IMG/VR virus record: IMGVR_UViG_3300044645_001738
Span: 1 to 64,000 of that record
Length of the DNA stretch: 64,000 bases
Direction: 5' to 3' (one strand)
Source: a virus
Lineage: Duplodnaviria > Caudoviricetes
Positions 3,214 through 23,547 of the stretch are shown here, piece by piece. The notes beneath the pieces are model-generated. The model worked only from the letters and a program-made list of their open reading frames with translations. It did not search any database and was not told the DNA's origin. The position numbers and the translations under genes are program-made. Position 1 is the first letter of the stretch. Every line of letters begins with the position of its first letter.

Positions 3214-3307
3214 ACGTCCTGAGTACACGAAGTGTAGCGACACAATGTATTCCTTTGTTTTCAATGGAATGCATTGTGTTACCACCTTCGGTGACGTTAA
3301 ACTGCTC
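3214..3307 (+). ncRNA. Repeated H-type pseudoknot element, copy 1 (with inserted long hairpin)
   Basis: ACGTC-CT-GAGTA-[67-nt hairpin]-GACGT-TAAAC-TGCTC. Confidence 0.65.
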
Positions 3308-3330
3308 AACACACCACTGCAATTCACACG

Positions 3331-3534
3331 ATGAGAGACCCTGACTTCATTGATGAACAACGCAATGCCGATGCACTTGATGCAATGGCTGATCGTGTAT
3401 ACGAATTGGAAGAAGCCATGCGTGAAGCAGAACAAGATGGTTGGACAGGTGTTTTCAATGATGAGATATCAAATGAAGAACGCTACGCATGTGACCATTA
3501 CAACGAGAGGTATGTAATCAATGACTACCACTAA
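3331..3534 (+). CDS. Hypothetical acidic protein
   Basis: ATG ORF just downstream of pseudoknot element. Confidence 0.6.
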   Translation: MRDPDFIDEQRNADALDAMADRVYELEEAMREAEQDGWTGVFNDEISNEERYACDHYNERYVINDYH

Positions 3535-3615
3535 ACAAATCTGGGATGAAGACCCAGTGCTGCTGGGTATTGTCCTGGTATCAATCACAGTCACACTCAT
3601 TGGAGACTTCATCAA

Positions 3616-3969
3616 ATGCCTACTGCAAATCCATTTGCCAAGACAGAAGCAGCTCGTCGCTGGATCAGTAGGTACAACTGGTCAACAGAATTTGAAGACA
3701 AGGAACCAACCACGATCACGCTCCACGAATGCACCATGCATTACGGTGGACAAGAAGAAGGAGGATGGTATTGGGAATCAGGTTGGCCCATCAAAACAAT
3801 CTGTATCTTCTCCAAGAAGCAAGCCATCCGCGAAGCAATCGCACTCGAAGAGTACGCACTCGAAACCATTGGTGACAAGAAGGACAACCTTGGATGGCCC
3901 CAATGGCACGTTAGCTTCTCCAACGAGTACGCCAAAGCGTACCCCGAAGAACGTCCGTACTACTGCTGA
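3616..3969 (+). CDS. Hypothetical phage protein
   Basis: YGGQEEGGWYW and PEERPYYC motifs; coupled to next ORF. Confidence 0.7.
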   Translation: MPTANPFAKTEAARRWISRYNWSTEFEDKEPTTITLHECTMHYGGQEEGGWYWESGWPIKTICIFSKKQAIREAIALEEYALETIGDKKDNLGWPQWHVSFSNEYAKAYPEERPYYC

Positions 3970-4223
3970 TGTCAAATCAACTGGACCTGCCCAAGCTTGA
4001 TCCCAAGATCAGGCTGACAATCAACCAACGCAACATCTGGTTCTACTTTCTGAATCACAGGAAGAAGTACAAGAACTTACCTTGTTATGTACCAAAGCTT
4101 CCGATGCAGGAGACCAGGCGTCAAGACTATTACACAGCCTTGGAAAGGTTGGAGCAATACGGATTGATACGCGTGGACAGAACCAGTCGTAACTACACAG
4201 GCTGGATCATGCTTGATCCCTAA
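3969..4223 (+). CDS. Hypothetical protein, possible winged HTH
   Basis: LTINQRNIW...ALERLEQYGLIRV pattern. Confidence 0.55.
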   Translation: MSNQLDLPKLDPKIRLTINQRNIWFYFLNHRKKYKNLPCYVPKLPMQETRRQDYYTALERLEQYGLIRVDRTSRNYTGWIMLDP

Positions 4224-4309
4224 CCAACATATAAGTTTTACTTATATTCCATTCGCTATTTGCGAATAGCGCACAGTAGGTACCAGAGTATTGCCAGATA
4301 ACTGCCAAC

Positions 4310-4582
4310 TTACTTACCTAAAGTATTAATCAAATCTTTATTGGCTTGGTTTACAACTTGATAGGCGTGTTCCAATGGCTTTGGTTTAAGAGACTTTATA
4401 TCTTGAACGTCACTAGCCCAAAACATTCCAACGTTTGAACCGCCCCAAATCAAGTGATCTCCTTGTGCATATCGTTTAGATGTATATTCATTGACAACAT
4501 GCTGATCAATGTATTTACCAGAGGCTACCTCCCTGGGATATGCAACAACTTGATCTACATACTTACCAGCTAATTCCATCAC
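4310..4582 (-). CDS. Counter-oriented AT-rich hypothetical protein
   Basis: 90-aa ORF flanked by 14-bp direct repeat CAGAGTATTGCCAG; internal repeat GKYVDQVV/GKYIDQHV. Confidence 0.55.
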   Translation of the reverse strand: MMELAGKYVDQVVAYPREVASGKYIDQHVVNEYTSKRYAQGDHLIWGGSNVGMFWASDVQDIKSLKPKPLEHAYQVVNQANKDLINTLGK

Positions 4583-4630
4583 TTAAACCTTTTAAATAAC
4601 ATAATAAGACAGAGTATTGCCAGCTTCAAC

Positions 4631-4668
4631 CCTGGACATCCACATACTTATGTGGTGTAAGTCCCAGG
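4631..4668 (+). ncRNA. GTGTAAGTC bulged-hairpin motif, copy 1
   Basis: CCTGG-ACATC-CACATA-CT-TATGTG-GTGTAAGTC-CCAGG. Confidence 0.5.
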
Positions 4669-4696
4669 ATTAATTCAACCTCTCAACAAACACACT

Positions 4697-5083
4697 ATGA
4701 CTGAATCAAGTGAACAACTGGTTACAGTTATTTGTTTAGTAGTTCAGCCACGTTACGAAGAAGTCGTAATGACTCAGTCTGAATTCGAAGCATTCAATAA
4801 AGAATTCCAAGAGACATGTCCAGACGAATACGAAGAAGACTTGCTGCGTAAGTATAAGTTTGTCGATTGGGAATACGGTACCCTTGGTACTAACTTAGAT
4901 GCTGATAGTTATCAATTTCGAGCTTACCCTGGCGACGTAAGAAACGGATCAGATGATGTTGTTTACTTTGACACGAATCAATCGTGGCAGAAAGCATATT
5001 CAAACAAGAAGCTTTCCCTGCGCAAACATGGAAACTATCTTCGATATGTACAGGAACGTAGAGAATTAACCCAAGAAGAATGA
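4697..5083 (+). CDS. Hypothetical protein
   Basis: 128-aa ATG ORF. Confidence 0.6.
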   Translation: MTESSEQLVTVICLVVQPRYEEVVMTQSEFEAFNKEFQETCPDEYEEDLLRKYKFVDWEYGTLGTNLDADSYQFRAYPGDVRNGSDDVVYFDTNQSWQKAYSNKKLSLRKHGNYLRYVQERRELTQEE

Positions 5084-5234
5084 TCCCAACTATGTGTACT
5101 ACACTTTTGTGCCTGACTCAATACTTTGGATCGGGCATAACATATACTCAGTCATATAACGCAGTTGCATTTAAAGTTCAAGATACTTTTTACTTTTGTA
5201 CTAAAGCATCTGGATTGTACAACTGCATTACCAA

Positions 5235-5666
5235 TCAAGGCCTATACCATTGAGGATTTGATTGTCGATAGTTATAAATTGTTTCTTCTCTTAACTGTTT
5301 TGCAGGTGAAAGAGAAGTTGTAACATCATTTAAATCACTGCCAAGTCCAAAGATTTCTTTGCTTTGCTGAAAACTTTGAGGCTTGGTGCCAAATCTGAAT
5401 CTTGCTTCTATTGATGGATCTTTAATCCCAACATTTAAACCAAAGTTATTACCCATTACACCAAGTTTTCCATTCAAAGGATTCAAGTTAACGCTACCCG
5501 TATCATCTTTGAATTCCATTGATCCACGATTAAGTAATGCGCTAAATACATTGCCTAACTTCTGTGCATCCGTAGGAGCAACTGGATTGTTAAACTGCGT
5601 TGACAACAACGCATCTGTTACTGCAGGACTCCAAGCACCTGCTAAACGTGTGCCAAAATTAGGCAT
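5235..5666 (-). CDS. Counter-oriented AT-rich hypothetical protein
   Basis: ORF from MPNFGTRLAG; upstream motif shared with 4310..4582. Confidence 0.6.
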   Translation of the reverse strand: MPNFGTRLAGAWSPAVTDALLSTQFNNPVAPTDAQKLGNVFSALLNRGSMEFKDDTGSVNLNPLNGKLGVMGNNFGLNVGIKDPSIEARFRFGTKPQSFQQSKEIFGLGSDLNDVTTSLSPAKQLREETIYNYRQSNPQWYRP

Positions 5667-5821
5667 GTGTTTAAACTTGTTTTTACAATAATAAGACAAG
5701 GGTATTGCCAGATAACTACTGGCCTACCCCCCGAACCCCCCGCTGTTCAGTACCAGGGGGGATCCTTAGATATACATACGTTATATCCATTTACTCCCAC
5801 CATTCACTCATCAACTCAACC

Positions 5822-6121
5822 ATGGAACAATCACAGAAGTATCCAACGATTGATTGGACTAAGAACGAATACTACCAAGTGCAACGTGCATTGGAGATCC
5901 TCATGCAGGTCGTTGATCGTGAATCAAAACGTCACGAGATGAATCAACATCTCACACCCAGCATGCTCAGCATGTTGGAAGATGAGATCATCCCAATGCT
6001 TAGTAACGAACTTGACTGTGACGGTGGGCCAAGCGATGACGAAATCTGTGGTGAACCACCGATGACGGCAGACGAAATGCACACTGCTGCATGGCGTCAG
6101 CACCAGGAGCTTCACTCCTAA
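5822..6121 (+). CDS. Hypothetical protein
   Basis: From MEQSQKYP, preceded by CAACTCAACC leader. Confidence 0.65.
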   Translation: MEQSQKYPTIDWTKNEYYQVQRALEILMQVVDRESKRHEMNQHLTPSMLSMLEDEIIPMLSNELDCDGGPSDDEICGEPPMTADEMHTAAWRQHQELHS

Positions 6122-6212
6122 CCAAACATTAAGAGAATCTGTAAGTCTACCTTGGACTAGCCATCCAGGGTAGACTGACCCTGCTTAACTCATTCCGCAA
6201 AACACACATCAG

Positions 6213-6416
6213 ATGTCCGACAAACCACGCATTCCCGACGCACTTGACATGCAACGTCTGCATGTCATGCAGCTTGTTGCCAAGATGAAAGAAGCTGCTG
6301 ATAAACAAGGTGTTCAATTCATCGGGGGTTTCGTCACCCCCGATGGAGAGAAATTTGTAATGACCAATATGGATGAAGATGACCAGCGTATGCTCATGCC
6401 TGAGGAACTCAAGTGA
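6213..6416 (+). CDS. Hypothetical protein
   Basis: 67-aa ATG ORF overlapping next start (GTGA). Confidence 0.65.
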   Translation: MSDKPRIPDALDMQRLHVMQLVAKMKEAADKQGVQFIGGFVTPDGEKFVMTNMDEDDQRMLMPEELK

Positions 6417-6766
6417 CTAATCAACACCCAATCACCCCACCGCCCGAGCTGGTGACGAATTGGTTAAGACATCGCAAACTTCTGGACCCGCAACCGCTTG
6501 CCCACCATTACCTTGCTAGTCGCGCCGCCCAATGGGGCTCAGACCAGGAGCTGGAGGCGTGTATTGAGTGGGTATCCATTCAGTTGAACTGTACCTCCCA
6601 AGAGCATTTAGTTCCACATCTCCGCGCCGCCCGCCGCCCCAAGCCGCCGAGTCTGAAGGAGCAGGCATTCAAGGATCTAGATGAATTGCTCCGTATTGCG
6701 AGACAAGCTGGAGTTTTTAATCCACCTGATAACATCCGCCGCGCACTGGAGGCTTTGCCCGAATGA
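6413..6766 (+). CDS. Mosaic small protein, family A (PITPPPELV / AAQWGxDQELEAC / ARRPKPPSLKEQA / IRRALE)
   Basis: Paralogous conserved blocks shared with 7739..8098 and 15401..15772. Confidence 0.8.
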   Translation: MTNQHPITPPPELVTNWLRHRKLLDPQPLAHHYLASRAAQWGSDQELEACIEWVSIQLNCTSQEHLVPHLRAARRPKPPSLKEQAFKDLDELLRIARQAGVFNPPDNIRRALEALPE

Positions 6767-7155
6767 CTAAACCTTTAACGCACAACAGAGTTGACATCAA
6801 AGTTATTTTGGCTAACCCCTTACTACGGGAAGAGTTAATTGAGGGTGCTACAGATTTTATTTGCAAAGTTGAAGGTATTCGCCGCCGTAAAGAAGATTTG
6901 GAAATGACTAACCTTTCTTCCGCCGCACAGGCGGTGCTGAGTGCCGCTAATGCTTCCGCAACTAATGCGTGGTCTGACGCCACTCACCAACGCTTTAGGT
7001 CTGGTGTAGCCGCCGCCCTGCAAGCTGCTGCTGATCAGGTGGTGCCGGAAACCACAACACCATGGAACTCCACTTTGACTCCAATGATTTCAGCAGGAGA
7101 AGTACGCGCTAAGTTCCTCGCCATCGCCGCCGAGCTGGAGGGTGGCAATGAATGA
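6763..7155 (+). CDS. Mosaic small protein, family B (LSxAAQAVL / AAALxAAADQVVPE / LAIAAELE); family B part starts at ATG 6904
   Basis: Blocks shared with 12797..13063 and 15765..16007. Confidence 0.75.
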   Translation: MTKPLTHNRVDIKVILANPLLREELIEGATDFICKVEGIRRRKEDLEMTNLSSAAQAVLSAANASATNAWSDATHQRFRSGVAAALQAAADQVVPETTTPWNSTLTPMISAGEVRAKFLAIAAELEGGNE

Positions 7156-7306
7156 CCTCGATGACACGCTCACCGCGATTGCCGCAGTAGCAACCCTTCT
7201 GATTATGTTTGCGGTTGCTTGGTGGTGGTTGCCGCAAAAGTGGCAAGCCTGCCAAAAGCTGTATGACAACCGTCCAGCCCAAGTATTCTGCTTTGGAGTT
7301 AAATGA
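7148..7306 (+). CDS. Small membrane protein (52 aa)
   Basis: MNDLDDTLTAIAAVATLLIMFAVAWWWLPQKW..., overlaps both neighbours. Confidence 0.6.
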   Translation: MNDLDDTLTAIAAVATLLIMFAVAWWWLPQKWQACQKLYDNRPAQVFCFGVK

Positions 7307-7746
7307 CTGACACTTTTCGTGCGCTGTGCGCTGAGCTGGCTGATTCCGTAGAGCTGTTGCTTGAAATGCGGAGCAATGATCGACCGATGCGGGTAACAGA
7401 GGATCGCCTTAACCGCGCCCGCGCCGCCCTGGAGGCCCAGCCCGAGCCGCAGGGGCCGAGTGAACTGGAACTAGAGGCCATTGAACTGAAGCTATGGGAC
7501 AAGCACCGAACCAAGGGATATATGGGAGAAGAGTTTATGTATGACAACGACTTCAGCGCTGCCTTGGATGAATACCGCGCTGCCCTGGCCCGATGGGGCC
7601 GCCCCGCCATCGAGCCCGAGCCGCCGAGCTTGAAGGAGCAGGCGCTGGAGGAGCTAACCGAAATCGACTGTCACTACATACCCCCTGGGGCGACCGAACG
7701 CATTGACATTATCCGCCGCGCACTGGAGGCCCTGCCAAATGACTAG
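7303..7746 (+). CDS. Mosaic small protein, family C head fused to family A tail
   Basis: FRALCAEL / RARAALEAQPEPQGPS / LARWGRPAIEP then PPSLKEQAL / IRRALEAL. Confidence 0.8.
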   Translation: MTDTFRALCAELADSVELLLEMRSNDRPMRVTEDRLNRARAALEAQPEPQGPSELELEAIELKLWDKHRTKGYMGEEFMYDNDFSAALDEYRAALARWGRPAIEPEPPSLKEQALEELTEIDCHYIPPGATERIDIIRRALEALPND

Positions 7747-8098
7747 CCCGATCACCCCGCCGCCGGAGCTAGTGCAGCAGTGGGTGGGCGGCGCCTTCCT
7801 ATCAGATGTGCACCACAACGAAGAAGATTTGGCGTACGAACAGTACATCGCTGAACGTGCCGCCCAATGGGGCGCCGACCAGGAACTGGAGGCGTGCTGT
7901 GAGTGGATTAAATCTGAACTCCGAGGACAACTTCGCCCCGCCCATCGAATCGCCATTGAACTCCGCGATGCCCGCCGCCCCAAGCCGCCGAGTCTGAAGG
8001 AGCAGGCGCTTGGCATCCTTGATGTGGCTCACCACGATGTTTTAGAAGATGACCAAATAGCAACTATCCGCCGCGCACTGGAGCAACTCGATGACTAA
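7739..8098 (+). CDS. Mosaic small protein, family A
   Basis: MTSPITPPPELV...AAQWGADQELEAC...IRRALEQLDD. Confidence 0.8.
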   Translation: MTSPITPPPELVQQWVGGAFLSDVHHNEEDLAYEQYIAERAAQWGADQELEACCEWIKSELRGQLRPAHRIAIELRDARRPKPPSLKEQALGILDVAHHDVLEDDQIATIRRALEQLDD

Positions 8099-8291
8099 AA
8101 ACAAATCACCAATTAACTTTGACAAGACAATCGCTGGCTTTAACATAACTGAGCACGGCGTTAAGTCTTATACCAAGTCAATTAAACTTGGTCCGTTCCA
8201 GGTTACACTTAATGCTCGTGGCTCTGGTGTCAGAGGATCTATTAGTATCCCCGGCACAGGCTTGAGCAAACGTAACATCCAACTGTTCTAA
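8091..8291 (+). CDS. DUF4236-like protein
   Basis: KSIKLGPFQVTLN...SISIPGTGLS motif. Confidence 0.6.
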   Translation: MTKNKSPINFDKTIAGFNITEHGVKSYTKSIKLGPFQVTLNARGSGVRGSISIPGTGLSKRNIQLF

Positions 8292-8293
8292 TA

Positions 8294-8328
8294 GCTGGGC
8301 ATCACCACTAGGGTGTGTAAGTCCCAGT
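8294..8328 (+). ncRNA. GTGTAAGTC bulged-hairpin motif, copy 2
   Basis: GCTGGG-CATC-ACC-ACTAG-GGT-GTGTAAGTC-CCAGT. Confidence 0.5.
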
Positions 8329-8524
8329 ACCCACCTCGCTCTCAACTCAACATGGATTCACTCACACTATTTGATCGCATCAATCTTGCAAAGTGTGCAC
8401 AGTTGCGTGCTGAAACCAACGTCCTTAACAACGACGTATTTATGGGAGAGTATTACACTGCACGCATGTGGACTAAGTACCGGTGTTACATCACCAAAAC
8501 TGTTTCATTCGTGGAGTCTGACTG

Positions 8525-8773
8525 ATGTCTGTCCTTGCAATCGAATCAACCGTCATCGATGATGACTATGTCACAGTTGAAGCAATTGTTGATGACATGC
8601 GTTGCATTTATGCAGCGACTTACTCAAGCCCTGCTGAATACGCTCCGGCACTTTGCCGAGCTAGCTTCTTCTTGGGTGATGACACCATCCCTACTGATGA
8701 AGATGGCTTCTGCCGTTATCTTGACGCATGCCAGCTTGAGTGGGAACCCATTGATCTAGGTAACGACGAATGA
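8525..8773 (+). CDS. Hypothetical cyanophage protein
   Basis: VEAIVDDM...PAEYAPALCRASF, acidic, coupled start. Confidence 0.65.
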   Translation: MSVLAIESTVIDDDYVTVEAIVDDMRCIYAATYSSPAEYAPALCRASFFLGDDTIPTDEDGFCRYLDACQLEWEPIDLGNDE

Positions 8774-8947
8774 TTGGATTCTCCATCGAATTTAAACGCT
8801 GGTACATCACAGTGCGTGGTCCCATGGGCAGGGTATATCTCTGCACTGGGTTTGCCAAACGCCTGCCAGTGTTTGTGTCACCGCAACAATCAATTGCATT
8901 TGATGACGACATCACTGATGATGAAGACTATGGTGTAAGGTAACACC

Positions 8948-8975
8948 ACGTCCTGAGCATGACGTTAAACTGCTC
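8948..8975 (+). ncRNA. Repeated pseudoknot element, copy 2
   Basis: ACGTC-CT-GAGCA-T-GACGT-TAAAC-TGCTC. Confidence 0.7.
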
Positions 8976-9000
8976 ATCATTTTAATTCAATTGCACACAC

Positions 9001-9873
9001 ATGGACTTCAAAAGTATTAATGATGCTTTCGATATTGATAAAGTGAGGCACCGCGCTGCCATGCATTATCAAAAGTACAAGTCACCTTCAGGTTACCCAA
9101 ACTGGTTAAAGATACTTGACAAAGTTGATATAGCTCATAACGTAATTCATGAAGTCCAAAAGGAAATTGGTAGCTTTGGATTGACACGAGAGTTATCTCA
9201 AGAAGAGAATGCTGCCTTGGTTGTTACAGGCGCTATTGCATCATTGTCTCCACCCATTTGCGTACATGAAAACATAATAGAAGCGCTTGCAAATACAGAT
9301 GTTAAGCCAATGGAAACACCTGAATATGCATTGCCGTTCTTTATATTTCTTTTGCCAAAAGATTTCAAGTTTACAACTAAACTACCTGACTACCAAGGTT
9401 TTGATTTAAATTTTTATGTAGCATTTGCTGCATGTATTCCTGACTGTGTGAAAGTAACTTACATAAGTGAAACTACTGTTTGTTATGGTTCATACCAATG
9501 GACTGAAATCATTACAGAAAAAGATGGAGCCAAAGAAGAAGATTACATCCTGGAAAAGTTCATGAAAAATTTGATACTTATGTATATGTATGAGCCCAAG
9601 TATTTGACAGAGGAAACCATCAAGCTACCCACAAAAGGCAAAGGCTTTGGTTCTAGTGAAAAAGATAAGCCATTCCAAATGCGTTGGCTAGGTAAAAACT
9701 ATAAGCAAGTACGACAAACAGTTGTATGCAAAGACAATATTGTTGATCCAGATAACAAACGATCTGTCCGAGCACATTGGCGTCGTGGACATTGGCACAC
9801 AGTATGCCATGGTCCCAAACACAAACAACGCAAGCAACAGTGGTTTAAACCTGTGTTTGTTAATCAGGATTAA
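9001..9873 (+). CDS. Hypothetical phage protein with C-terminal HWRRGHW motif
   Basis: 290 aa, VRAHWRRGHWH...WFKPVFVN; flanked by identical 34-bp repeats. Confidence 0.75.
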   Translation: MDFKSINDAFDIDKVRHRAAMHYQKYKSPSGYPNWLKILDKVDIAHNVIHEVQKEIGSFGLTRELSQEENAALVVTGAIASLSPPICVHENIIEALANTDVKPMETPEYALPFFIFLLPKDFKFTTKLPDYQGFDLNFYVAFAACIPDCVKVTYISETTVCYGSYQWTEIITEKDGAKEEDYILEKFMKNLILMYMYEPKYLTEETIKLPTKGKGFGSSEKDKPFQMRWLGKNYKQVRQTVVCKDNIVDPDNKRSVRAHWRRGHWHTVCHGPKHKQRKQQWFKPVFVNQD

Positions 9874-9877
9874 CACC

Positions 9878-9905
9878 ACGTCCTGAGCATGACGTTAAAC
9901 TGCTT
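9878..9905 (+). ncRNA. Repeated pseudoknot element, copy 3
   Basis: ACGTC-CT-GAGCA-T-GACGT-TAAAC-TGCTT. Confidence 0.7.
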
Positions 9906-9933
9906 ACATTACGAACTTAACTCTGAACTCACC

Positions 9934-11673
9934 ATGGAATTTCGTCTTCCGACCAACCTTCAGAACGAACTTATCCCTTACGATCCAACGCTCAAGAAGT
10001 TGGCACGTACTGAGAAGCAAGGCAAGGCAGGTACCAAGAAATCTAAATATCCACTTGGCAATCCACCACGGTTGATGCCATTGGATGTCGTAAGAGAATC
10101 ACTGCAGCAAGAAGCAATTGATGTTATCAATAGAGTAACTGCTTGTGATAGGCACCATGAATTCAAGTTGCCTGTCGGTAACATCCCCAACGTAGAGTAC
10201 GTTGTCCATGCAGTGATGTACCACTACGAAGGCGTATGGGTAGCAGCATGGCTGCCACCTAAAGGCAAGGAGAATGACTATGTATATGGTTACACTTACT
10301 GCTTTAAGGACACAGCCGCTACTCGTAAGATGCTGGATTGCCAGGTTAAAAATAACCTGGAAAAATACACCGTATCAGAAATTGGTCGTTCTGTTTATTA
10401 CTACAGAACTGAACTGGTTACCAAGCAAAACATCATTGATGGTAATGATCGTCCTTGCTGGATGTATAGCTACGTTGGTGGCTACGCCCAAAAATCTAAG
10501 AACATTGCATCAATGCTTGGACGCTTTAGGGATGCACTTAAGAAAACAATTCCAACCTGGTCAGACGGTCGCGGTATCTTTGATCGCATCAAAACTTCTC
10601 GTACCCTATACAGCTTGCTTAGTGAAGATCGTGATTTGGATAGTACCTATTGGATCAAATACAAAAAAGATTTTAAGCAGACTAAACAACAATGGTCTGC
10701 ATCAGTTGCGTCTTTGTTCCACCTAATTGATTACCATGTAAATGTCTCTCGCTATAATCCGTTTAGCGAATTTGTACGCGTTCGTCATATACTTGATAAA
10801 CCATTCTTCCGCAAGTGGATCCAAGATAAATGTAATGAGATCAATACAAAGTACCAAGATGAATCAGTAGACACTATGGCTACAATCCGCAGGCCTTGGT
10901 TGTTAATCAAAGAGTTTGTTAAGGGTATTCATTATGTCCATTCAATCTGGGGTGATGCAGTTCCATTGGATTACTACCAGTCAAACATTGATAACTTAAT
11001 GGGCGTTAAAACCTGGAGCCCTGTACCAACAATTGTTCTTCCATGGCTAACTGAACATATGCCAGTTGCTTCATTCTTTCAAATGCGTAGCAAATACTAC
11101 CTGGAACAGAAGGCTGCTCCACAACGTAGTTATGACTATGAAGAAAGGCTTGGTATGTCTCAGTACCGATTCCGTGAATGGGAAGATACATGCAGCATGC
11201 TTAATCAAATCCTCAATAATGACAAAACAATTGATCCGCCAAAGCGTTGGCGTATCACTGAACTCCATGACCATGTGCAAGCAGAAGCATGGAAGATCCA
11301 GAATCCCAATCACAAACTTCCACAAGATCTATTCCCTGCACCAATCAAGGTGCAGCACGCTGATCAGAACTGGTCATTCTTCCAGCCATTTGACACTCAT
11401 CAATTGGCACAGTGGGGCCAAGCCGTACGTAACTGCGTAGGTAATGCCAGCAGTTATGCCGAAGGTGTACGCAAGAAACAACACTTTATTGTGTTGTGTA
11501 TGGTCGATGGTGCACCACGCTTTACCATCCAACTTGAAGTCAACATGGGACTCATGAGTGTCAAACAGATTGTTGGAATGCACAACTCCAGGCTGACGGA
11601 GGCAGACCGTGATCTGTACTCAGCAGCTTTCCGTCAGGCCTTGCAATCCCGCGAGGAACAGCTTAAGATCTGA
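9934..11673 (+). CDS. PcfJ-like domain protein
   Basis: C-terminal ELHDH...LAQWGQAVRNCVG..Y...RFTIQL...QIVGMHN pattern. Confidence 0.7.
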   Translation: MEFRLPTNLQNELIPYDPTLKKLARTEKQGKAGTKKSKYPLGNPPRLMPLDVVRESLQQEAIDVINRVTACDRHHEFKLPVGNIPNVEYVVHAVMYHYEGVWVAAWLPPKGKENDYVYGYTYCFKDTAATRKMLDCQVKNNLEKYTVSEIGRSVYYYRTELVTKQNIIDGNDRPCWMYSYVGGYAQKSKNIASMLGRFRDALKKTIPTWSDGRGIFDRIKTSRTLYSLLSEDRDLDSTYWIKYKKDFKQTKQQWSASVASLFHLIDYHVNVSRYNPFSEFVRVRHILDKPFFRKWIQDKCNEINTKYQDESVDTMATIRRPWLLIKEFVKGIHYVHSIWGDAVPLDYYQSNIDNLMGVKTWSPVPTIVLPWLTEHMPVASFFQMRSKYYLEQKAAPQRSYDYEERLGMSQYRFREWEDTCSMLNQILNNDKTIDPPKRWRITELHDHVQAEAWKIQNPNHKLPQDLFPAPIKVQHADQNWSFFQPFDTHQLAQWGQAVRNCVGNASSYAEGVRKKQHFIVLCMVDGAPRFTIQLEVNMGLMSVKQIVGMHNSRLTEADRDLYSAAFRQALQSREEQLKI

Positions 11674-11892: not shown

Positions 11893-11936
11893 CACTTGGC
11901 AGCACACATCAGTTGATGTGAGTGTAAGTCCAAGTG
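11893..11936 (+). ncRNA. GTGTAAGTC bulged-hairpin motif, copy 3 (abuts tRNA)
   Basis: CACTTGG-CAGCAC-ACATC-AGTT-GATGT-GA-GTGTAAGT-CCAAGTG. Confidence 0.5.
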
Positions 11937-11938
11937 AT

Positions 11939-12024
11939 GGGGACATGGCGGAATAGGTAGACGCAACGGACTTAAAATCCGTAGGCCATTGGCTGTGAGA
12001 GTTCAAGTCTCTCTGTCCCTACCA
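11939..12024 (+). tRNA. trnL: tRNA-Leu(TAA)
   Basis: GGGGACA/TGTCCCT acceptor, ACGGA-CTTAAAA-TCCGT anticodon arm, long variable arm, GAGAG-TTCAAGT-CTCTC T-arm, encoded ACCA. Confidence 0.95.
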
Positions 12025-12046
12025 ACAAACACACCAGCTCAACACC

Positions 12047-12409: not shown

Positions 12410-12459
12410 ACTCAGTACCTACTCACTACCCTCCGTTACTAACAGCGGAGGGTTTACTC

Positions 12460-14952: not shown

Positions 14953-15167
14953 AGATTCTTTTGGTCAGCCTGTTGAATCAGACAACAACTTCAGCAGGTT
15001 GTTTTTTTAATTCTTTGATGGCACGTTTGGACTCTACATCCTTGCGTGTTTGTTTTTTCTTTTGGTTTGCCAGGTACACAAGCAGTGCTTGATCCATTAT
15101 TCTGTATCTGTTGTTACTGAAGTTTACTTCAATTGATGCACACCATGTTGTTCACTGTGTAACACAA

Positions 15168-15404: not shown

Positions 15405-15772
15405 CTAATCAAATTAATGGTGACAAGTTATTTGTCATTAATCCACACCCTGCCATCCCACCTTCTGATCAACTAAAGAAGTGGGAAGACAAATGGTTCG
15501 ATGAAGAAGAACATCCTGATGTTCTGTTAATCCAGGCGTTTCAAGCAGGCGCCGACCAGGAGCTGGAGGCGTGTGTGGAGTGGCTTGGTGATGCTCCTGT
15601 TGTATGGGACAACAATGGCGATCTTCATCCAGGTTCATATTTAAGAGATGCCCGTCGCCCTAAACCAAACTTGAAGGAGCAGGCGCTAACGGCATTGCTG
15701 CACCTTGACCAAGGACAACATAACGAGCGCTGCTTGATCATCCGCCGCGCCCTGGAGCAACTCGATGACTGA
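15401..15772 (+). CDS. Mosaic small protein, family A (variant N-terminus)
   Basis: GADQELEAC...LRDARRPKPNLKEQAL...IRRALEQLDD. Confidence 0.8.
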   Translation: MTNQINGDKLFVINPHPAIPPSDQLKKWEDKWFDEEEHPDVLLIQAFQAGADQELEACVEWLGDAPVVWDNNGDLHPGSYLRDARRPKPNLKEQALTALLHLDQGQHNERCLIIRRALEQLDD

Positions 15773-16007: not shown

Positions 16008-16106
16008 TCAAGCCGCAAGGTCATTCGCTTGCTAGCCAGGGGAAGCAGCAGAAACCCTGACTCCCTCGGGGTTGACGCTGCTCTGCTACACCCCATATAA
16101 TCATAC

Positions 16107-16133
16107 ACGTCCTAAGCATGACGTTAAACTGCT
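16107..16133 (+). ncRNA. Repeated pseudoknot element, copy 4
   Basis: ACGTC-CT-AAGCA-T-GACGT-TAAAC-TGCT. Confidence 0.7.
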
Positions 16134-16154
16134 AGTCAACTCAACTCAACTACC

Positions 16155-16922
16155 ATGAAACTTCTCAAGTTTTCTACCGGCAACGGCAAGCTCAAGAATC
16201 GTTTGATCTTCTCGCTGCCAGCGGGATACGCCTGCCCTCACGCAGGTGTGTGTAAGACCATGGCCGATCGTGCCACTGGTTCCATCATTGATCTACCACA
16301 ACACAATGGCACAACAGCAGATGAGTTCCGCTGCTTTGCTGCCATGGCAGAAGTTAGGCCAAACGTACGGGAGGCACGCTGGCACAACTGGGATCTGTTG
16401 CGTGGTGTTATGTATGGCAATGGAAACCAAGCGTTGTTGTTGCGTGATCTAATTGACATGTCGCTCAGTATGCAACCACCAAAAGAACTGGTGCGTGTCC
16501 ACGAGTCAGGAGATTTCTGGACTGAGAACTATCTCAAGGCATGGCTGATGGTTGCCAAGCAACGCCCTAAGCAAAAGTTCTATGCCTATACCAAGTCTCT
16601 TGGGATGTGGTACAACCTTAAAGATCTGATACCATCCAACTTTTATCTCACCGCATCTTACGGTGGTACGTTGGATTACATGCTGCCCAAGTATCCAGAC
16701 GTTTACACACGCATTGCGTATGTGGTGTACACGGAAGAGGAAGCAGCAGAGCGTGGACTTGAGATCGATCACGACGATAGCCACTGCCTTGGTGATAAGC
16801 CATTCGCACTCTTGGTTCATGGGTCCCAGAGGGCTGGTACTCCTGCATCCCAAGCGTTGTCTCAACGCAAGAAGGATGGGAAGTTTGTTGGGTACGGTAA
16901 ATCAATGCAGAAGATATCCTGA
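16155..16922 (+). CDS. Gp88-like protein (Cys-containing, radical-SAM-like fold family)
   Basis: GNGKL, FSLPAGYACP..GVC, CFA, VRVHESGDF, FYAYTKS motifs. Confidence 0.75.
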   Translation: MKLLKFSTGNGKLKNRLIFSLPAGYACPHAGVCKTMADRATGSIIDLPQHNGTTADEFRCFAAMAEVRPNVREARWHNWDLLRGVMYGNGNQALLLRDLIDMSLSMQPPKELVRVHESGDFWTENYLKAWLMVAKQRPKQKFYAYTKSLGMWYNLKDLIPSNFYLTASYGGTLDYMLPKYPDVYTRIAYVVYTEEEAAERGLEIDHDDSHCLGDKPFALLVHGSQRAGTPASQALSQRKKDGKFVGYGKSMQKIS

Positions 16923-16978
16923 ATATCTTGCATTGACAAATAGGTCTGATAACATCTGACAGTTATCTTCTTGTTCAG

Positions 16979-17212
16979 ATGAGCTACGTCATTGTCTCTT
17001 GGAAATCAGGAGCACCGCATGCGGTACATGCATGCAACAAAACTAACTCTTTTCAGTTGGTTCCATTAGACTCTGACGTAGCTCTTACCAAAATTTTTTC
17101 GCATCCGTATCGTGCGGGTGCGCAACAAATTTTAAATTGGATTAACAAGAATGATGACCAGCTCGCCCGTCAAGAACTCGACGTTTACGATGAAGCCCAG
17201 TTCCGCAAGTGA
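16979..17212 (+). CDS. Hypothetical protein
   Basis: 77-aa ATG ORF upstream of polymerase. Confidence 0.55.
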   Translation: MSYVIVSWKSGAPHAVHACNKTNSFQLVPLDSDVALTKIFSHPYRAGAQQILNWINKNDDQLARQELDVYDEAQFRK

Positions 17213-19016: not shown

Positions 19017-19180
19017 TTACCATGGACCCTCAAGTTGATTACGAGCTTCTGGCTAAAGACTTGTACTTGGCTGCTGATCATTTCTTTTGTTCAATGTTTG
19101 ATAGTTCTTGCTGGAACGACGAAGAATTAAACAGCAAGTACATAACAGTTCTTGGAGAAGCTCGCAGGGTATTTGGTTCC

Positions 19181-19207
19181 ACGTCCCAAGCATGACGCTA
19201 AACTGCT
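19181..19207 (+). ncRNA. Repeated pseudoknot element, copy 5
   Basis: ACGTC-CC-AAGCA-T-GACGC-TAAAC-TGCT. Confidence 0.65.
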
Positions 19208-19229
19208 GTAACACTATCCTTTTGATCCC

Positions 19230-20045
19230 ATGAACTTTTGTTGCATCTGCGCACAGTTGGGTGAAAACCCACGCGAAGTTTTTACCAGCGCATCCTCAAC
19301 TGCAATTCGTTGCTCCGTCATCCTTCCTCCCGTTGGAAACAAAGCACCTACCACAATTGAATACAACATCTACGGAAAACAATCCGAGCGTTTCCAGCGG
19401 CTGCATAAAGGAAACCTCATCTACATTCACGGCGCCAAGCTACGTTATGATCTCGAATCCAAAACGTATTCGCTACATGGAGGAGTTGTTGCAGAGGTTA
19501 CGGATACATTCCCAATCCTCAACTCAATTGTATTGACTGGCCGTTGTGTTAAAGACATTGATCAGTCTGATGCACGTGCATTTAAAACAACCGCTGATGG
19601 TTTGATGATTGCCAATCAAAGTATCTCGGTTAATACAGGTAAGGGTCAGGCAGATCTGTTTAACTTCTATGCAATCAACAATGCAACAGACAAGTTTAAT
19701 CAAGCCGAACTTCTGGTGAACTCCACCAGGAAAGGCACGGGCATTACGATCCATGGGCGATTGGTTACTGATCGTTTTAAAGATGCCAATACCCAGGAGA
19801 TTCGTAACATCTCCAAACTTCAACTGGTCAATATGACCTTGGCTCCCAAGGGGGCAGACGGTAGTGCGCCTAAGCCTGTAGCACCGCAAACAACTGTGGC
19901 ATCGGCAGGTGAGGTAACATCCCTCTGGGGTGGCCGCACCGCTGAGGAGAACAACGATCCTTGGAACCAAACATCAGGTGGCGGTCTGCCTGAGATTCCT
20001 GGTCAATACGGACAAGCCCCCAACCTCGACGAGATTCCTTTCTGA
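19230..20045 (+). CDS. ssb: Single-stranded DNA-binding protein, two OB folds
   Basis: NSIVLTGR..., KGTGITIHGRL, Gly/Pro linker, C-terminal LDEIPF. Confidence 0.85.
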   Translation: MNFCCICAQLGENPREVFTSASSTAIRCSVILPPVGNKAPTTIEYNIYGKQSERFQRLHKGNLIYIHGAKLRYDLESKTYSLHGGVVAEVTDTFPILNSIVLTGRCVKDIDQSDARAFKTTADGLMIANQSISVNTGKGQADLFNFYAINNATDKFNQAELLVNSTRKGTGITIHGRLVTDRFKDANTQEIRNISKLQLVNMTLAPKGADGSAPKPVAPQTTVASAGEVTSLWGGRTAEENNDPWNQTSGGGLPEIPGQYGQAPNLDEIPF

Positions 20046-20269
20046 TGACGATTCGGTTTTCCCACTCGGATGAAGATTTAAGTATTTCATTTGAGTCCCA
20101 AGCTGTTACTACGGATGAGGTGATGGCGCACTTCATTCAGTTTCTTTTGGCAATGGGGTATGCCCGTGAAAGTATTCATGAGGCCATGCAAGAAATCGTT
20201 GATGAACACGACGATTACTTGAAGAATCTTGACAAAGAAAAAGCTCGGCTGCCTTTTGACGTAGACTGA
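20045..20269 (+). CDS. Hypothetical protein
   Basis: F.QFLLAMGY motif; coupled to ssb. Confidence 0.65.
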   Translation: MTIRFSHSDEDLSISFESQAVTTDEVMAHFIQFLLAMGYARESIHEAMQEIVDEHDDYLKNLDKEKARLPFDVD

Positions 20270-20272
20270 GTC

Positions 20273-20300
20273 ACGCCTTGGGATGGCGTTAAAAGCATCC
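20273..20300 (+). ncRNA. Repeated pseudoknot element, copy 6 (divergent)
   Basis: ACGCC/GGCGT and GGAT/ATCC pairings, TAAAAG linker. Confidence 0.55.
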
Positions 20301-20321
20301 ATCGTTTACTACGAACTGACC

Positions 20322-21362
20322 ATGACCCAACTTCCGTCTTTGAAGGACATCAACACAATGGCTACGAAGAAAACTTCTGCTCTTGCTACACGCGGTCTGG
20401 AATCTTTTAAGATGTTCCAGTCCAAAGAATTTGTATCGGGTTACCAGAACCTGGTCACTATCCAACCACTGAACAAGTCCAAGACTCGTGGTTGGTTTGT
20501 GCGTAAGTCTGACCTTGACACCTGCGGTTGGACCGCAACTGAAGATCAGTTTGCCAAAGGTTCAGTCATCTGGAACTACAAGCAAACCTTTGGCATGGCT
20601 CCCAACACTTCAATTGAAGAAGGGTTGAACTTCATTGAGCCTCGCCTTCAAGTGCTGTTGCGTTCTCCCCTGATGGTTGAAGAAACTTCTGGGATGCGCC
20701 AGGTGATTGGTTCGTTTGACAATCCGAATGTCAAAGAACTGTTTGAGGCTGACAAGATTGCATCTGATCTTGCCAACAGCAAAGGTGAAATGTACAAGCG
20801 CAGGTACAGCGTGCGTACCAAATACCTGGTGTATGTGCTGACCCAGGACAACAAGCGTGCCCATAAGATCCCTATGATGCTGACGCTGAAAGGCTTGAAT
20901 GGTACTGACGTTTCTGAGAAGATCCGTCTGTATGAAAAGGAAATGTCTAAGTGCTTGAGCAAAGCACTGGACTCTGAGGTGCCTCTGGCATTCAATGAAA
21001 AGTTCTATGCCACTACGGTGTTCTGCCCTGTGCTGGCAAATGAAATGCGCGGTGCCAACAACGTTGAGATCTGCGCCATTGAATCCTTTGACATTCCTGA
21101 TTACAGCTCCCAGGAAGATGCAGTCGAATCTTTGAATCGTCTGTCAATTCCTGATGAAGATCGGGAATCAACCTGGAAGTATCAAGAGATGTTCCAGGAC
21201 TACATCAACGTCCATGCCAAACAGGACTCAGACAAACTCGGTGGTGCCTATGGCATTAAGGAAGGTGTTGAGATTCTGCCTGTGTCCCGCACCATGGATC
21301 CAGTAGATGTCAAAGCCCTGCCTTCTCGCGATGAGTTGACAGGGGAAGACTCTTCACTTTGA
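20322..21362 (+). CDS. Hypothetical protein in replication module (possibly DUF5895-like)
   Basis: Long ORF with biased codon usage; AHKIPMMLTLKG motif. Confidence 0.7.
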   Translation: MTQLPSLKDINTMATKKTSALATRGLESFKMFQSKEFVSGYQNLVTIQPLNKSKTRGWFVRKSDLDTCGWTATEDQFAKGSVIWNYKQTFGMAPNTSIEEGLNFIEPRLQVLLRSPLMVEETSGMRQVIGSFDNPNVKELFEADKIASDLANSKGEMYKRRYSVRTKYLVYVLTQDNKRAHKIPMMLTLKGLNGTDVSEKIRLYEKEMSKCLSKALDSEVPLAFNEKFYATTVFCPVLANEMRGANNVEICAIESFDIPDYSSQEDAVESLNRLSIPDEDRESTWKYQEMFQDYINVHAKQDSDKLGGAYGIKEGVEILPVSRTMDPVDVKALPSRDELTGEDSSL

Positions 21363-21620
21363 TGTAGGTTCAACCTTAGGGTTAGCCAGGTCATCTTGAT
21401 TAATGGAAACATTATTGAAGATGAACATATCCTGGACTAACCCTCGGATACAACCTTGACGATTAGTGGCGATCTGCGCAAGCAAGGTCGCCATTTCTTT
21501 TAACTCACTTACGGAGTTACAGTCTTGAATTGAACGTTTGATTTTTTCTAGCCAGAACTTATCGTCAAGCGATGGTTCAATCTGAAACTTGTTCAGGGGT
21601 ACGTACTGAATTTCTTCCAT
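21354..21620 (-). CDS. Possible divergent NblA-like protein
   Basis: PSLDDKFWLEKIKRSIQ...ELKEMATLL......RQGCIRGLV matches NblA helix-loop-helix spacing loosely. Confidence 0.4.
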   Translation of the reverse strand: MEEIQYVPLNKFQIEPSLDDKFWLEKIKRSIQDCNSVSELKEMATLLAQIATNRQGCIRGLVQDMFIFNNVSINQDDLANPKVEPTSK

Positions 21621-21894
21621 AGGTATTCAGTTGTTACAAATCAATTGTACTTCCATAGTTAAATGCAACGTCAACCTTCACAATGTATTAAGGAGCACAC
21701 AATGCACAAGGCTGATGCGGCTGCTATCATTGCGGGTAGCACCACGGCATTGGTTGGTGCTGCTATCATTGCGGTCGGCAGCACTCCCGTTGCCTGGGCT
21801 GCACTAGCATACGGGACCTACCGCATGAGCAAACAAGCTCACCGCCTAGTCCAGAGCCGCACTGACTCCAACATCCAAGAAGAAGATTCTTGGC

Positions 21895-22866
21895 ATGTCT
21901 AACTCAACCCTCAACTCAACCATGACTACTCGAACTGTTCTTGAACTCAACGCTGCACAAGCCAGCATTTACACTCGTACTAACATCCGTCGTGCTTACC
22001 AGGATTTTGATGACTCCGAGATTGCTGGCATTGGTGTGCGAGGCGACAATTGTATTGTTGTGCGTCGCGATGGTAGTGAGCAGACTTATGACAGGCAGTT
22101 GATTAAGACTGCGTTTAGCTCCTATACTCACCGTCTAAAAGATTTCTTCTCGTACCTTGGCCCTCATTACCGTGGCCCTAGTGTATGGCGTAACAATGCT
22201 TACGTATTGTTTAAAGGATGGACCTACACTCACGCCCTTGGACACACAACATCCCATGCAAAACTCCAAGCCCACTGGGCAGACAAGTTTATACACTTAT
22301 CAGATGCCGTTAAACTCACCACGTTGCTTCAGTCTGACCAAACGGACCTGGGCCATTTGGTGGCGCCAGACGGATTTCGGTTTTCGAATCGGCCGTTTGA
22401 TATGGACTCTGAGTTGGACAACGACAAAGAACAACAGCAGGTGCTTAATGAACCTAGTTGCTCGTGTGGGTCGTTTCAACGTCAGCTCAACAACCTATCT
22501 GCTTTCCAAGAAGAGATCCAGGGATTTAAACCGTGGTGTATTCACCTGACTTGGTTTCAGAAATACAGGGAACTGCTTTGCAAACGTACTGAGATTCGCA
22601 ATGCTGCACATAGTGGTGTGTCTGACAAGTGCGTGGCTTGGTGGTACGCACCTCCTGTTGACTCCAACAATGATGGACGTTTCGTATTGCTTCACACCAA
22701 GTCAGGTGCGCAAGCACCGCTTAGCCACTGGCGTACCTACAAACCACAAGAGGTCCTGACACAGAACGATGCATGGGACCTGTTCTTCAATATGATGGAG
22801 GCGGGTTACATTCCATTCCCTGGAATTTCACTCCCACAACTCAAGGAGGCCGTCAAGAAATCATGA
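21895..22866 (+). CDS. SWIM zinc-finger domain protein
   Basis: CSCGSF...PWCIHL. Confidence 0.7.
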   Translation: MSNSTLNSTMTTRTVLELNAAQASIYTRTNIRRAYQDFDDSEIAGIGVRGDNCIVVRRDGSEQTYDRQLIKTAFSSYTHRLKDFFSYLGPHYRGPSVWRNNAYVLFKGWTYTHALGHTTSHAKLQAHWADKFIHLSDAVKLTTLLQSDQTDLGHLVAPDGFRFSNRPFDMDSELDNDKEQQQVLNEPSCSCGSFQRQLNNLSAFQEEIQGFKPWCIHLTWFQKYRELLCKRTEIRNAAHSGVSDKCVAWWYAPPVDSNNDGRFVLLHTKSGAQAPLSHWRTYKPQEVLTQNDAWDLFFNMMEAGYIPFPGISLPQLKEAVKKS

Positions 22867-23185
22867 TCTTGTCTAATGGTAAACACAGTTATCATCTTGA
22901 GTTTGACGATGATACACATTGGGCACTTGTAAAAATTGGTGCCGAGATAAAGATGGATTCTGAAACCTATGCTGAACATGTATTAACCAGTCATGTCGAA
23001 CAATTCTTGGGTCAACAACCTACAAATTGAATACAAAGAAGAGCCTGATGGTTCCGGTACAATTGTCATTGAGTGGGATGAAAACGACTGCTCACTAGAA
23101 CAATGGATGTCATGGGGTGAAGAAAAACAAAAACAATTTATTTTTGATGCGCTTACTCTTGCTGTATCTGACGCACTAAACGACA

Positions 23186-23515
23186 ATGAAACTTGATTCA
23201 TGTGGGTTACCTGAAGATCAATTCATTGAGATCTTCCAGAAGAAGGCCCAGTTCTTAGGCAAACTATTAACAACATTTCATCCAGGGACGCAGACCATCA
23301 TGGATGAGAAGATTGCCTGGGAGATGTTCCAGGAATGTGTCTATGCTGCTGAAGCAGAAGCACGGGACATTGTTGATCCTGAAGGCAAGGATGATCCCTA
23401 TGGTCCCAAGATGTTTATCTCCCGTGAGGATATGATGCTTGAGATTAAAACTGTTAAAGAGAAAGTGCAAGCGCTTACCGATAGCATCTCTGTGTTAATT
23501 CATACAGAGAAGTGA
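23186..23515 (+). CDS. Hypothetical protein
   Basis: 109-aa ATG ORF. Confidence 0.6.
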   Translation: MKLDSCGLPEDQFIEIFQKKAQFLGKLLTTFHPGTQTIMDEKIAWEMFQECVYAAEAEARDIVDPEGKDDPYGPKMFISREDMMLEIKTVKEKVQALTDSISVLIHTEK

Positions 23516-23519
23516 CGAT

Positions 23520-23547
23520 GCGTCCTGGTCATGACGTTAAACTGACC
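23520..23547 (+). ncRNA. Repeated pseudoknot element, copy 7
   Basis: GCGTC-CT-GGTCA-T-GACGT-TAAAC-TGACC (compensatory stem 2). Confidence 0.7.

Follow-up and report, generated by a model that had tools for sequence, protein, structure and literature searches.

The stretch of DNA analyzed here (hereafter the window) is the first 64 kb, positions 1 to 64,000, of the single-contig virus record IMGVR_UViG_3300044645_001738 (83,977 bp) in IMG/VR, and it carries seven copies of a compact H-type RNA pseudoknot, 28 nucleotides (nt) long and formed on the sense strand. This knot is a real, conserved RNA structure, both stems of which covary strongly across phages resembling Synechococcus phage S-EIV1. 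It belongs to the 5′ untranslated region (UTR) of the gene that follows it. In S-EIV1-like cyanophages it accompanies a fixed set of early and middle genes, each genome having 3-7 copies that share one strand.

The layout of the knot comprises stem 1 (S1) CGUC, loop 1 (L1) CU, stem 2 (S2) NNN(C/U)A, a junction U, the second strand of stem 1 (S1′) GACG, a linker UUAAAC and the second strand of stem 2 (S2′) U(G/A)NNN. An initial annotation, made from the letters of the window alone, had placed the element at seven sites, and all of them are present on the + strand. Six of them are contiguous 28-mers; at 3214 a 67-nt hairpin, which had gone unremarked, divides the copy in two. A search of the consensus with at most 3 mismatches gave 3 matches versus 0 in 100 shuffles, and neither looser patterns nor a structure descriptor, applied to both strands of the complete 83,977-bp genome, revealed an eighth copy. 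A generic descriptor of pseudoknots with no constraint on sequence was uninformative, returning more than 1000 matches per strand.

Both stems covary and the sense strand folds

A scan of IMG/VR with the pattern ACGTCCT-N5-TGACGTTAAAC matched at least 118 stretches; like the other collection scans it used an exact pattern, so that such counts are lower bounds biased to the commonest S1. In a set of 85 distinct standard-length copies, in which S1 was fixed by the search pattern, S2 was paired in 94.6% of the alignment cells and four of its five pairs varied on both sides. The outermost A-T pair was unpaired in 36 of these 85 relatives. S1 is therefore a stem of 4 bp, which retains the inner four pairs of the 5-bp stem first described.

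The covariation of S1 was analyzed with an anchor pattern restricted to the loops plus the inner two pairs of S2, which left S1 and the three outer S2 pairs free. It gave 244 matches, corresponding to 88 distinct 27-mers, where about 4 were expected by chance in the 2 Mb searched. S1 was fully paired in 83 of the 88 and used 10 different pair combinations (CGUC/GACG in 56, GGAC/GUCC in 8, UGUC/GACA in 8, and seven rarer ones), and the outer three S2 pairs were all formed in 64, versus 27.8 with shuffled partners. Double-sided changes occurred at eight of the nine pairs, with 124 cells showing such changes among the 88 distinct sequences. Paired cells amounted to 94.6%, compared with 78.5% in shuffles and 21-51% when the partner strands were slid; the observed values were reached in none of 500 shuffles, a count that is not a probability because many of the sequences are paralogues or orthologues of one another. 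The slid-partner controls and the number of distinct pair types are independent of this kinship.

Among the 83 rows with S1 fully paired, G-U cells numbered 39 and A-C cells 9, an excess indicating that it is the sense strand that folds. The covariation of both stems and the strand-specific wobble pairs confirm the earlier view that selection acts on the RNA fold and not on a duplex-DNA operator, and the S2 variants on which that view relied (GAGCA/TGCTC, GGTCA/TGACC, GGAT/ATCC and GAGTA/TGCTC), as well as the S1 variant CGCC/GGCG, are as described. The unpaired letters are conserved as well: C(U/C) in L1, a single U at the junction and (U)UAAAC in the linker.

The knot lies in the 5′ UTR of the downstream gene

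The position of the knot was analyzed in 180 non-redundant contexts, drawn from 232 descriptor matches after those near a locus end and identical contexts had been dropped; the ATG counted was the first to open an open reading frame (ORF) of at least 30 codons. This ATG followed S2 by 20-23 nt in 92 of the 180 contexts, by 20-31 nt in 136 and by less than 20 nt in 6, and no qualifying ATG lay within 120 nt of S2 in 12. The spacing thus shows a sharp floor at 20 nt and a long tail to 116 nt. An ATG 20-31 nt after S2 was also found in 29 of the 43 contexts with the upstream gene at least 25 nt away. In the window, the distances from the end of S2 to the next ATG are 23, 25, 28, 20, 21, 21 and 24 nt for copies 1 to 7, a range of 20-28 nt that departs only slightly from the 21-28 nt initially reported. 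The annotation's broader proposal, a phage-wide element residing in 5′ UTRs, is supported by the contexts across related phages.

On the upstream side, the distance from the preceding stop codon to the first paired base was exactly 5 nt in 63 of the 180 contexts, 5-8 nt in 96 and less in 1; the copy at 20273, which has an odd geometry, has its upstream stop 4 nt away. Any reading frame of at least 60 codons entered the knot in 10 of the 180 contexts, 9 of which also had an upstream ORF of at least 50 codons stopping 5-9 nt before the knot. The frame from this stop to the next ATG was uniformly distributed (35, 33 and 28 of 96), and 16 of the 33 in-frame cases held a stop. The knot is therefore not a device for recoding of the upstream gene, and frameshifting and readthrough were rejected on these frame statistics.

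The leaders between the knot and the ATG contain 5.2% G, 34% A, 34% C and 26% U (122 leaders); they have no Shine-Dalgarno sequence and are predicted to be unstructured. Before copy 4, a sigma-70-like promoter has a -10 box ending 6 nt before S1, so that its transcript would start at about the 5′ edge of the knot. A -10-like hexamer at a fixed offset was found in 11 of 49 contexts with distant upstream genes, too few for a promoter so placed to count as a general feature. Some copies would thus open a transcript, while most would lie inside polycistronic RNA.

Genes carrying the knot in S-EIV1-like cyanophages

The DNA polymerase encoded in the window is 67% identical to its counterpart in Synechococcus phage S-EIV1 (KJ410740), the other cultured phages listed reaching at most 43%, and gene content and order also agree with S-EIV1. 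Judged from its genome, the virus is an S-EIV1-like freshwater cyanophage, a likeness from which a cyanobacterial host would follow. Megablast against cultured phages returned a tRNA match only. Two tRNA-Leu genes were seen, at 11939-12024 (+ strand, anticodon TAA) and 29274-29345 (- strand, anticodon CAA); Rfam confirmed only the first, which shares 89% identity with a tRNA from Synechococcus phages B3 and B23.

All seven copies of the knot lie within 3.2-23.5 kb, in a + strand block of replication genes that includes those for a family A DNA polymerase, ThyX and SSB, with a primase-helicase further on. The copies and the genes that follow them are as follows.

3214..3307, + strand: copy 1, split; S1 5′ strand CGTC at 3215-3218, S2 5′ strand GAGTA at 3221-3225
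3293-3307, + strand: 3′ part of copy 1; S1 3′ strand GACG at 3293-3296, linker TTAAAC, S2 3′ strand TGCTC at 3303-3307
3308..3534, + strand: downstream of copy 1; 23-nt G-poor leader 3308-3330, ORF of 67 amino acids (aa) 3331-3534
8948..8975, + strand: copy 2, consensus form; upstream stop 8941-8943, 5 nt before the first paired base of S1
8976..9873, + strand: downstream of copy 2; 25-nt leader, 290-aa ORF 9001-9873 with no Pfam family
9878..9905, + strand: copy 3; upstream stop 9871-9873, 5 nt before S1
9906..11673, + strand: downstream of copy 3; 28-nt leader, PcfJ-like gene 9934-11673 (579 aa, PF14284)
16072..16101, + strand: promoter before copy 4; sigma-70-like TTGACG-18-TATAAT, 11/12
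16107..16134, + strand: copy 4; S2 of 4 bp
16135..16922, + strand: downstream of copy 4; 20-nt leader, GP88-family gene 16155-16922 (PF17338)
19181..19208, + strand: copy 5; the canonical S-EIV1 copy lies at the orthologous site before its ssb
19209..20045, + strand: downstream of copy 5; 21-nt leader, ssb 19230-20045 (PF00436)
20273..20300, + strand: copy 6, variant; S1 CGCC/GGCG, S2 GGAT/ATCC, linker TTAAAAGC; upstream stop 20267-20269
20301..21362, + strand: downstream of copy 6; 21-nt leader, DUF5895 gene 20322-21362
23520..23547, + strand: copy 7; S2 GGTCA/TGACC; upstream stop 23513-23515, 5 nt before S1
23548..23685, + strand: downstream of copy 7; 24-nt leader, 37-aa hydrophobic ORF 23572-23685

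The S2 of copy 4 has only 4 bp because its terminal pair is A-A. In copy 1, a 67-nt insert (3226-3292) separates the 5′ half (3214-3225) from the 3′ half (3293-3307); it folds as a long, nearly perfect hairpin and stands exactly at the site of the single junction U. No insert of this type was seen in the related loci looked at; either an expansion specific to the lineage or a small mobile hairpin could account for it. The downstream genes named in the initial annotation, ssb, Gp88-like and PcfJ-like, were recovered in Pfam as SSB, GP88 and PcfJ, and DUF5895 joins them.

Across the lineage, 161 downstream proteins fell into 33 clusters. The largest comprise PcfJ-like proteins (27), SSB (21), GP88 (20), a hydrophobic peptide of 37-41 aa (19), a protein of 43-68 aa (16) and DUF5895 (12). 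The 37-aa ORF after copy 7 belongs to the 37-41 aa family, which has the knot in 19 related contexts, and the 67-aa ORF after copy 1 to the 43-68 aa family, which has it in 16. The cultured phage S-EIV1 contains six copies according to the sequence model, the canonical one before ssb and the others before two additional ORFs and the GP88, PcfJ-like and DUF5895-like genes; S1 is UGUC/GACA or AGUC/GACU in several of these. Five related records of 84-88 kb gave 5, 3, 6, 5 and 6 anchor matches, on a single strand and within 10.5-16.1 kb in each, with 0 matches on the opposite strand and 0 for a reversed control pattern.

Copies beyond the cyanophage lineage

A scan of prokaryotes, limited to one genome per species and using the pattern CGTCCT-N5-TGACGTTAAAC, gave at least 60 matches in at least 56 loci. 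Among the 60 matches listed, S2 paired at four or more of five positions in 44 and at all five in 32, where about 0.4 were expected by chance. These 44 came from Enterococcus, Ruminococcus, Finegoldia, Peptostreptococcaceae, Anaerolineae, Saccharibacteria, a Phytoplasma, Bacteroidota, two cyanobacterial assemblies and others, and an identical core is thus present in prophage-like DNA of Bacillota, Chloroflexota, Saccharibacteria and further groups. The 16 unpaired matches, which include every match in Pseudomonadales, Psychrobacter, Wolinella and archaea, look like chance.

Ten downstream proteins were scanned against protein families: three matched the phage scaffold family PF06810 ("GP20"), three the scaffold family PF14265 and four no family. 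The eight upstream proteins scanned comprised a minor capsid protein, Mu-F, ArdA, AimR, one weak sigma-region-4 match and three without family. The capsid, Mu-F, ArdA and AimR neighbours together with the scaffold genes thus point to a setting in phage or other mobile DNA. As RAGATH-18 RNAs are reported to guide the TnpB of IS607 elements (PMC11061315), a TnpB-type guide-RNA scaffold was considered; it was rejected, none of the eight upstream proteins matching a TnpB family. In the prophage-type loci a real Shine-Dalgarno sequence is present, the knot lies 13-106 nt from the start, which argues against a ruler for initiation, and terminator-like hairpins often stand just before the knot.

Variant arrangements were also seen. 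An Anaerolineales contig (L132:1375-1430) holds tandem knots, the second with S1 GGUC/GACC and linker AUAAAC. Six contigs from Anaerolineae or related bacteria (L134, L142, L150, L162, L165 and L167) share a common knot variant with S2 GGCUG/CAGCC; it follows a conserved protein of 300-330 aa with a weak sigma-70 region-4-like C-terminus, and the sequence 3′ of it differs among the six, as at the edge of a mobile element.

Relation to catalogued RNA families

At the gathering threshold, Rfam found only a tRNA in the window, and at E values up to 10 a single copy (8900-9010) gave only chance matches to small nucleolar RNAs and microRNAs. The nearest catalogued relative is GP20-b RNA (RF03003), a candidate cis-regulator located before phage GP20/scaffold genes (Weinberg et al. 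2017). It had no match at E values up to 10 in 8900-9010 or in the whole own genome, where its gathering cut-off of 36.2 bits was not reached. An Enterococcus copy of the knot aligned with GP20-b RNA from end to end at 19.2 bits (E = 0.046), with the knot at the 5′ half of the model, and five prophage-type genomes with the knot scored 17-30 bits, none above the cut-off. True GP20-b matches above the cut-off were found in 7 of 151 sampled genomes. The 5′ half of GP20-b resembles the knot: its S1 has 3-4 bp, L1 is short, S2 has 4-5 bp, and the linker, UAAAAC, is rich in A. The cmscan structure line of this model marks S2 only; S1 in 8 aligned true matches reads GAC/GUC, GUC/GAC, GCC/GGC and GGUC/GACC, and covaries.

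The two RNAs differ in several respects. GP20-b has a 3′ hairpin with a GCAAC loop and a UAAAAAGCGUA tail, and the window copies have neither; in the window, the knot is followed by 20-28 nt of G-poor, predicted unstructured sequence and then the ATG. The window knots precede ssb, GP88, PcfJ-like and other genes and not scaffold genes (PF06810), which only the prophage copies do, and knots of the window type occur in 3-7 copies per genome, unlike GP20-b. Conversely, GP20-b knots score at most 6.6 bits with a sequence-only model of the window knot. Both types can occur side by side: in one locus (L191:1501-1603, minus strand) a window-type knot lies about 20 nt upstream of a bona fide GP20-b, followed by a scaffold-type gene. 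In a Clostridia-class genome, a skipping-rope RNA (RF02924, 43.5 bits; L190:1303-1401) was seen about 100 nt upstream of GP20-b.

A second relative is the RAGATH-1 hammerhead (RF03152), found at 68.4 bits about 600 nt from a knot copy in a phage-like intergenic region (L171). Its first hairpin reads CGUC-loop-GACG-UUAAAA, with the loop pairing downstream, so that S1, linker and topology are those of the window knot. In RAGATH-1, unlike the knot, the downstream strand belongs to hammerhead stem II, and the core CUGAUGA...GAAA stands between the linker and S2′. This core is absent after the linkers of the window, which has no RF03152 match. The knot is thus a free-standing form of a module contained in two catalogued phage RNAs and a member of neither family. 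The first impression that it matched no named family thus holds for the Rfam thresholds and needs qualifying for its plan, which is common to the 5′ pseudoknot of GP20-b and the RAGATH-1 module.

No functional study of GP20-b was found in the open literature. The main text of Weinberg 2017 does not discuss GP20-b (PMC5737381), and Fremin 2023 names it only as a likely cis-regulator and also mentions the gene 32 pseudoknot (PMC10690425). A description of the knot itself was not found in the literature; the GP20-b drawing of Weinberg 2017 and the 8,495 IMG/VR candidates of Fremin 2023 (PMC10690425) may include the motif.

Possible functions of the knot

We tentatively favor, as a possibility falling short of an even chance, a function in cis: the knot would be a constitutively folded barrier or insulator, marking the 5′ edge of the downstream cistron and shielding it. 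An A-rich linker lying along a G-C-rich S1 gives small H-type knots resistance to pulling from the 5′ end. Here, such a linker along the 4-bp S1 would lock the fold against enzymes moving 5′ to 3′, which may be the exonuclease RNase J, RNase E scanning in after cleavage further upstream, or ribosomes that trail in from the preceding cistron. The unstructured, G-free leader without Shine-Dalgarno sequence and the AUG would stay intact and free for initiation, both when the knot opens the transcript, as at copy 16107, and when it lies inside polycistronic RNA. The outcome would be high expression, independent of upstream events, of genes needed in quantity, such as SSB here and scaffold proteins in prophages.

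The two spacing floors can be read in the same way. In work on frameshift sites and the ribosomal helicase, 5 nt is the spacing at which a ribosome whose A site contains the stop codon comes up against a structure downstream and leaves it closed; the 5-nt floor after upstream stops therefore suggests that the knot is meant to stay folded during upstream translation. The 20-nt floor on the other side would keep it just outside a 30S subunit seated on the AUG. The occurrence of the core before genes with and without Shine-Dalgarno sequences, in several phyla, suggests a property that is self-contained, or else a universal partner, rather than a protein peculiar to one lineage. Self-cleaving ribozymes are another route to a protected 5′ end. 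A block to exonucleases, one of the options raised in the initial annotation, is compatible with everything seen.

Several observations weigh against a barrier. Nested folding, which cannot represent the pseudoknot and returns either stem singly, gave -4.9 to -6.3 kcal/mol with z-scores of -0.6 to 0.7; because each stem alone is weak, the strength of the barrier would rest on tertiary contacts predicted from the layout. Any stable hairpin could serve as a barrier, and the near-invariant loops across phyla may indicate contact with a conserved partner, either the ribosome or a protein. Similar G-poor leaders occur at other early genes of the window that lack the knot. In seven lake metatranscriptome runs 6-12% of the sampled words occur, and four of these runs were examined as contigs; contigs from these RNA libraries cross the knot's 5′ edge in the copies at 8948 and 19181, so that obligatory processing there is not indicated, a weak argument given that the contigs are of low depth, may include DNA carry-over and show no ends, strand or level, and that uncovered parts are uninformative.

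A conserved partner is central to another reading, rather unlikely in our estimation, in which the knot and its G-free leader form a docking or standby site with high affinity for the 30S subunit or ribosomal protein S1 and so replace the Shine-Dalgarno sequence. Its anatomy of knot, unstructured stretch and AUG without Shine-Dalgarno matches that of tisB, where a 5′ pseudoknot and a single-stranded stretch permit initiation without direct access to the ribosome-binding site. The tisB pseudoknot is reported to be required for binding of 30S and protein S1, and systematic evolution of ligands by exponential enrichment on protein S1 yielded an H-type knot of nanomolar affinity; the tisB start, in contrast, lies about 100 nt downstream behind structure, in a single E. 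coli gene, and the two show no sequence likeness (PMC7708055). The spacing floor at 20 nt and the peak at 20-23 nt (92 of 180) would suit such a site, as would loops identical across phyla if the partner were universally conserved. The tail to 116 nt, however, resembles an exclusion zone and not a ruler; the same leader type recurs without the knot, and prophage knots stand at no fixed geometry before starts with their own Shine-Dalgarno sequences. Moreover, many of the prophage hosts are Bacillota and Mollicutes, in which protein S1 is missing or not ribosome-bound.

If the partner were instead a trans-acting RNA-binding protein, the knot would be an operator, in the cyanophage perhaps for SSB repressing a regulon of replication genes after the manner of T4 gp32; we regard this as improbable. 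At the autoregulatory pseudoknot of T4 gene 32, gp32 nucleates on the knot, spreads over the unstructured leader that follows it and switches off expression. The H-type knot, the unstructured leader and the gene for a protein that binds single-stranded DNA are mirrored in the window, one copy always stands before ssb (21 contexts and S-EIV1), and L1, the junction U and the linker UAAAC are nearly invariant while the stem sequences drift. SSB, however, is the bacterial OB-fold protein of PF00436 and not gp32, the knot is much closer to the AUG than in T4 and has seven targets, and 10 pair combinations are tolerated in S1. In other phyla scaffold and unrelated genes follow the same knot, so that no single phage protein can be the common partner, and a gene-32-type operator, as first suggested, cannot be the general role. 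A biochemically sophisticated RNA is very unlikely, be it a tiny riboswitch that senses a global metabolite, a minimal ribozyme or the partner of one. The knot's occurrence in several phyla, its fold and its many invariant nucleotides correspond to the criteria by which Weinberg et al. recognize such RNAs (PMC5737381), and the module is common to a hammerhead variant. Set against this are the single-U junction loop, which leaves little room for a pocket, functionally diverse downstream genes and an S2′ without consistent overlap of a ribosome-binding site. These same points weaken the small riboswitch of the initial annotation, whatever the resemblance of the topology to preQ1-I. No hammerhead core and no Rfam riboswitch or ribozyme match was found on the window or on a single copy, and the window offers no Shine-Dalgarno sequence for S2′ to overlap; in the prophage copies the distance from the knot to that sequence varies.

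It is barely credible that the motif acts at the DNA level, whether as promoter, as operator or as an initiation site on single strands, or that it directs recoding of the upstream ORF. TAAACT fits the -10 pattern TAnnnT, yet such hexamers keep a fixed offset in the 11 of 49 contexts given above, and interleaved compensatory changes in both stems with sense-strand G-U pairs are unexpected at protein-DNA sites. The position 5 nt after stop codons resembles recoding sites, and the compact, triplex-bearing frameshift pseudoknots of luteoviruses such as beet western yellows virus share with the knot a length of about 28 nt, a 2-nt L1 starting with C, a 1-nt junction, an A-rich loop 3 and the 5-nt spacing from the A site. 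Unlike these, the window knot has no slippery site, none having been seen upstream, its frames to the next ORF are uniform, with half of the in-frame cases holding an intervening stop, and it serves the downstream gene.

The cis-acting barrier can also be stated in a bolder form, which we consider unlikely. The 28-nt knot would then be a cistron-start module, sufficient by itself and independent of the host, a triplex-locked stop for 5′-3′ enzymes and the bacterial and phage counterpart of viral exonuclease-resistant RNAs, present in phages of at least five bacterial phyla and serving as the scaffold of RAGATH-1 and GP20-b.

Other repeats in the window

Further repeats were seen in the window. 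An 18-nt repeat, ATCCGCCGCGCACTGGAG, with one variant among its copies, occurs at 6734-6751, 7711-7728, 8066-8083 and 15740-15757; it encodes a C-terminal IRRALE in four small ORFs, each of which overlaps or abuts the next start codon, and these ORFs look like paralogous small early proteins with a conserved tail. The 20-mer CTTCTGTACTTAACCTTCCG occurs twice (1229-1248 and 1446-1465), as does the hairpin CAGGA-CTCAACA-TCCTG (1486-1502 and 1947-1963), the second time after a terminator-like stem; both repeats may be boxB-like or processing sites.

The sequence TGTAAGTCC(C/A)AG is present three times on the + strand, at 4656-4667, 8316-8327 and 11923-11934; two of them precede ORF starts by about 30-45 nt, and the other stands 5 nt before tRNA-Leu(TAA). 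Repeats of GTATTGCCAG, at 4288-4297, 4614-4623 and 5702-5711 and also at 47758-47767, adjoin the minus-strand ORFs 4310-4579 and 5235-5666, which stand within an otherwise + strand early block. These two ORFs have near-identical upstream regions and may be inserted selfish genes.

Significance

Catalogues have listed phage intergenic RNAs such as GP20-b, the RAGATH motifs and ribozymes borne by phages for about a decade, with no role assigned to them. The knot of the window is the smallest version of one shared module, free of other parts and placed before identifiable genes, and it occurs in a cultured pair, S-EIV1 and Synechococcus PCCC-A2c, that is open to mutation and mapping. Its function, once found, would show how these phages secure expression without Shine-Dalgarno sequences in cyanobacteria, and would probably account as well for related motifs of prophages from gut and soil. 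If the knot insulates or stabilizes a cistron, it would provide a portable 28-nt part for cyanobacterial engineering.

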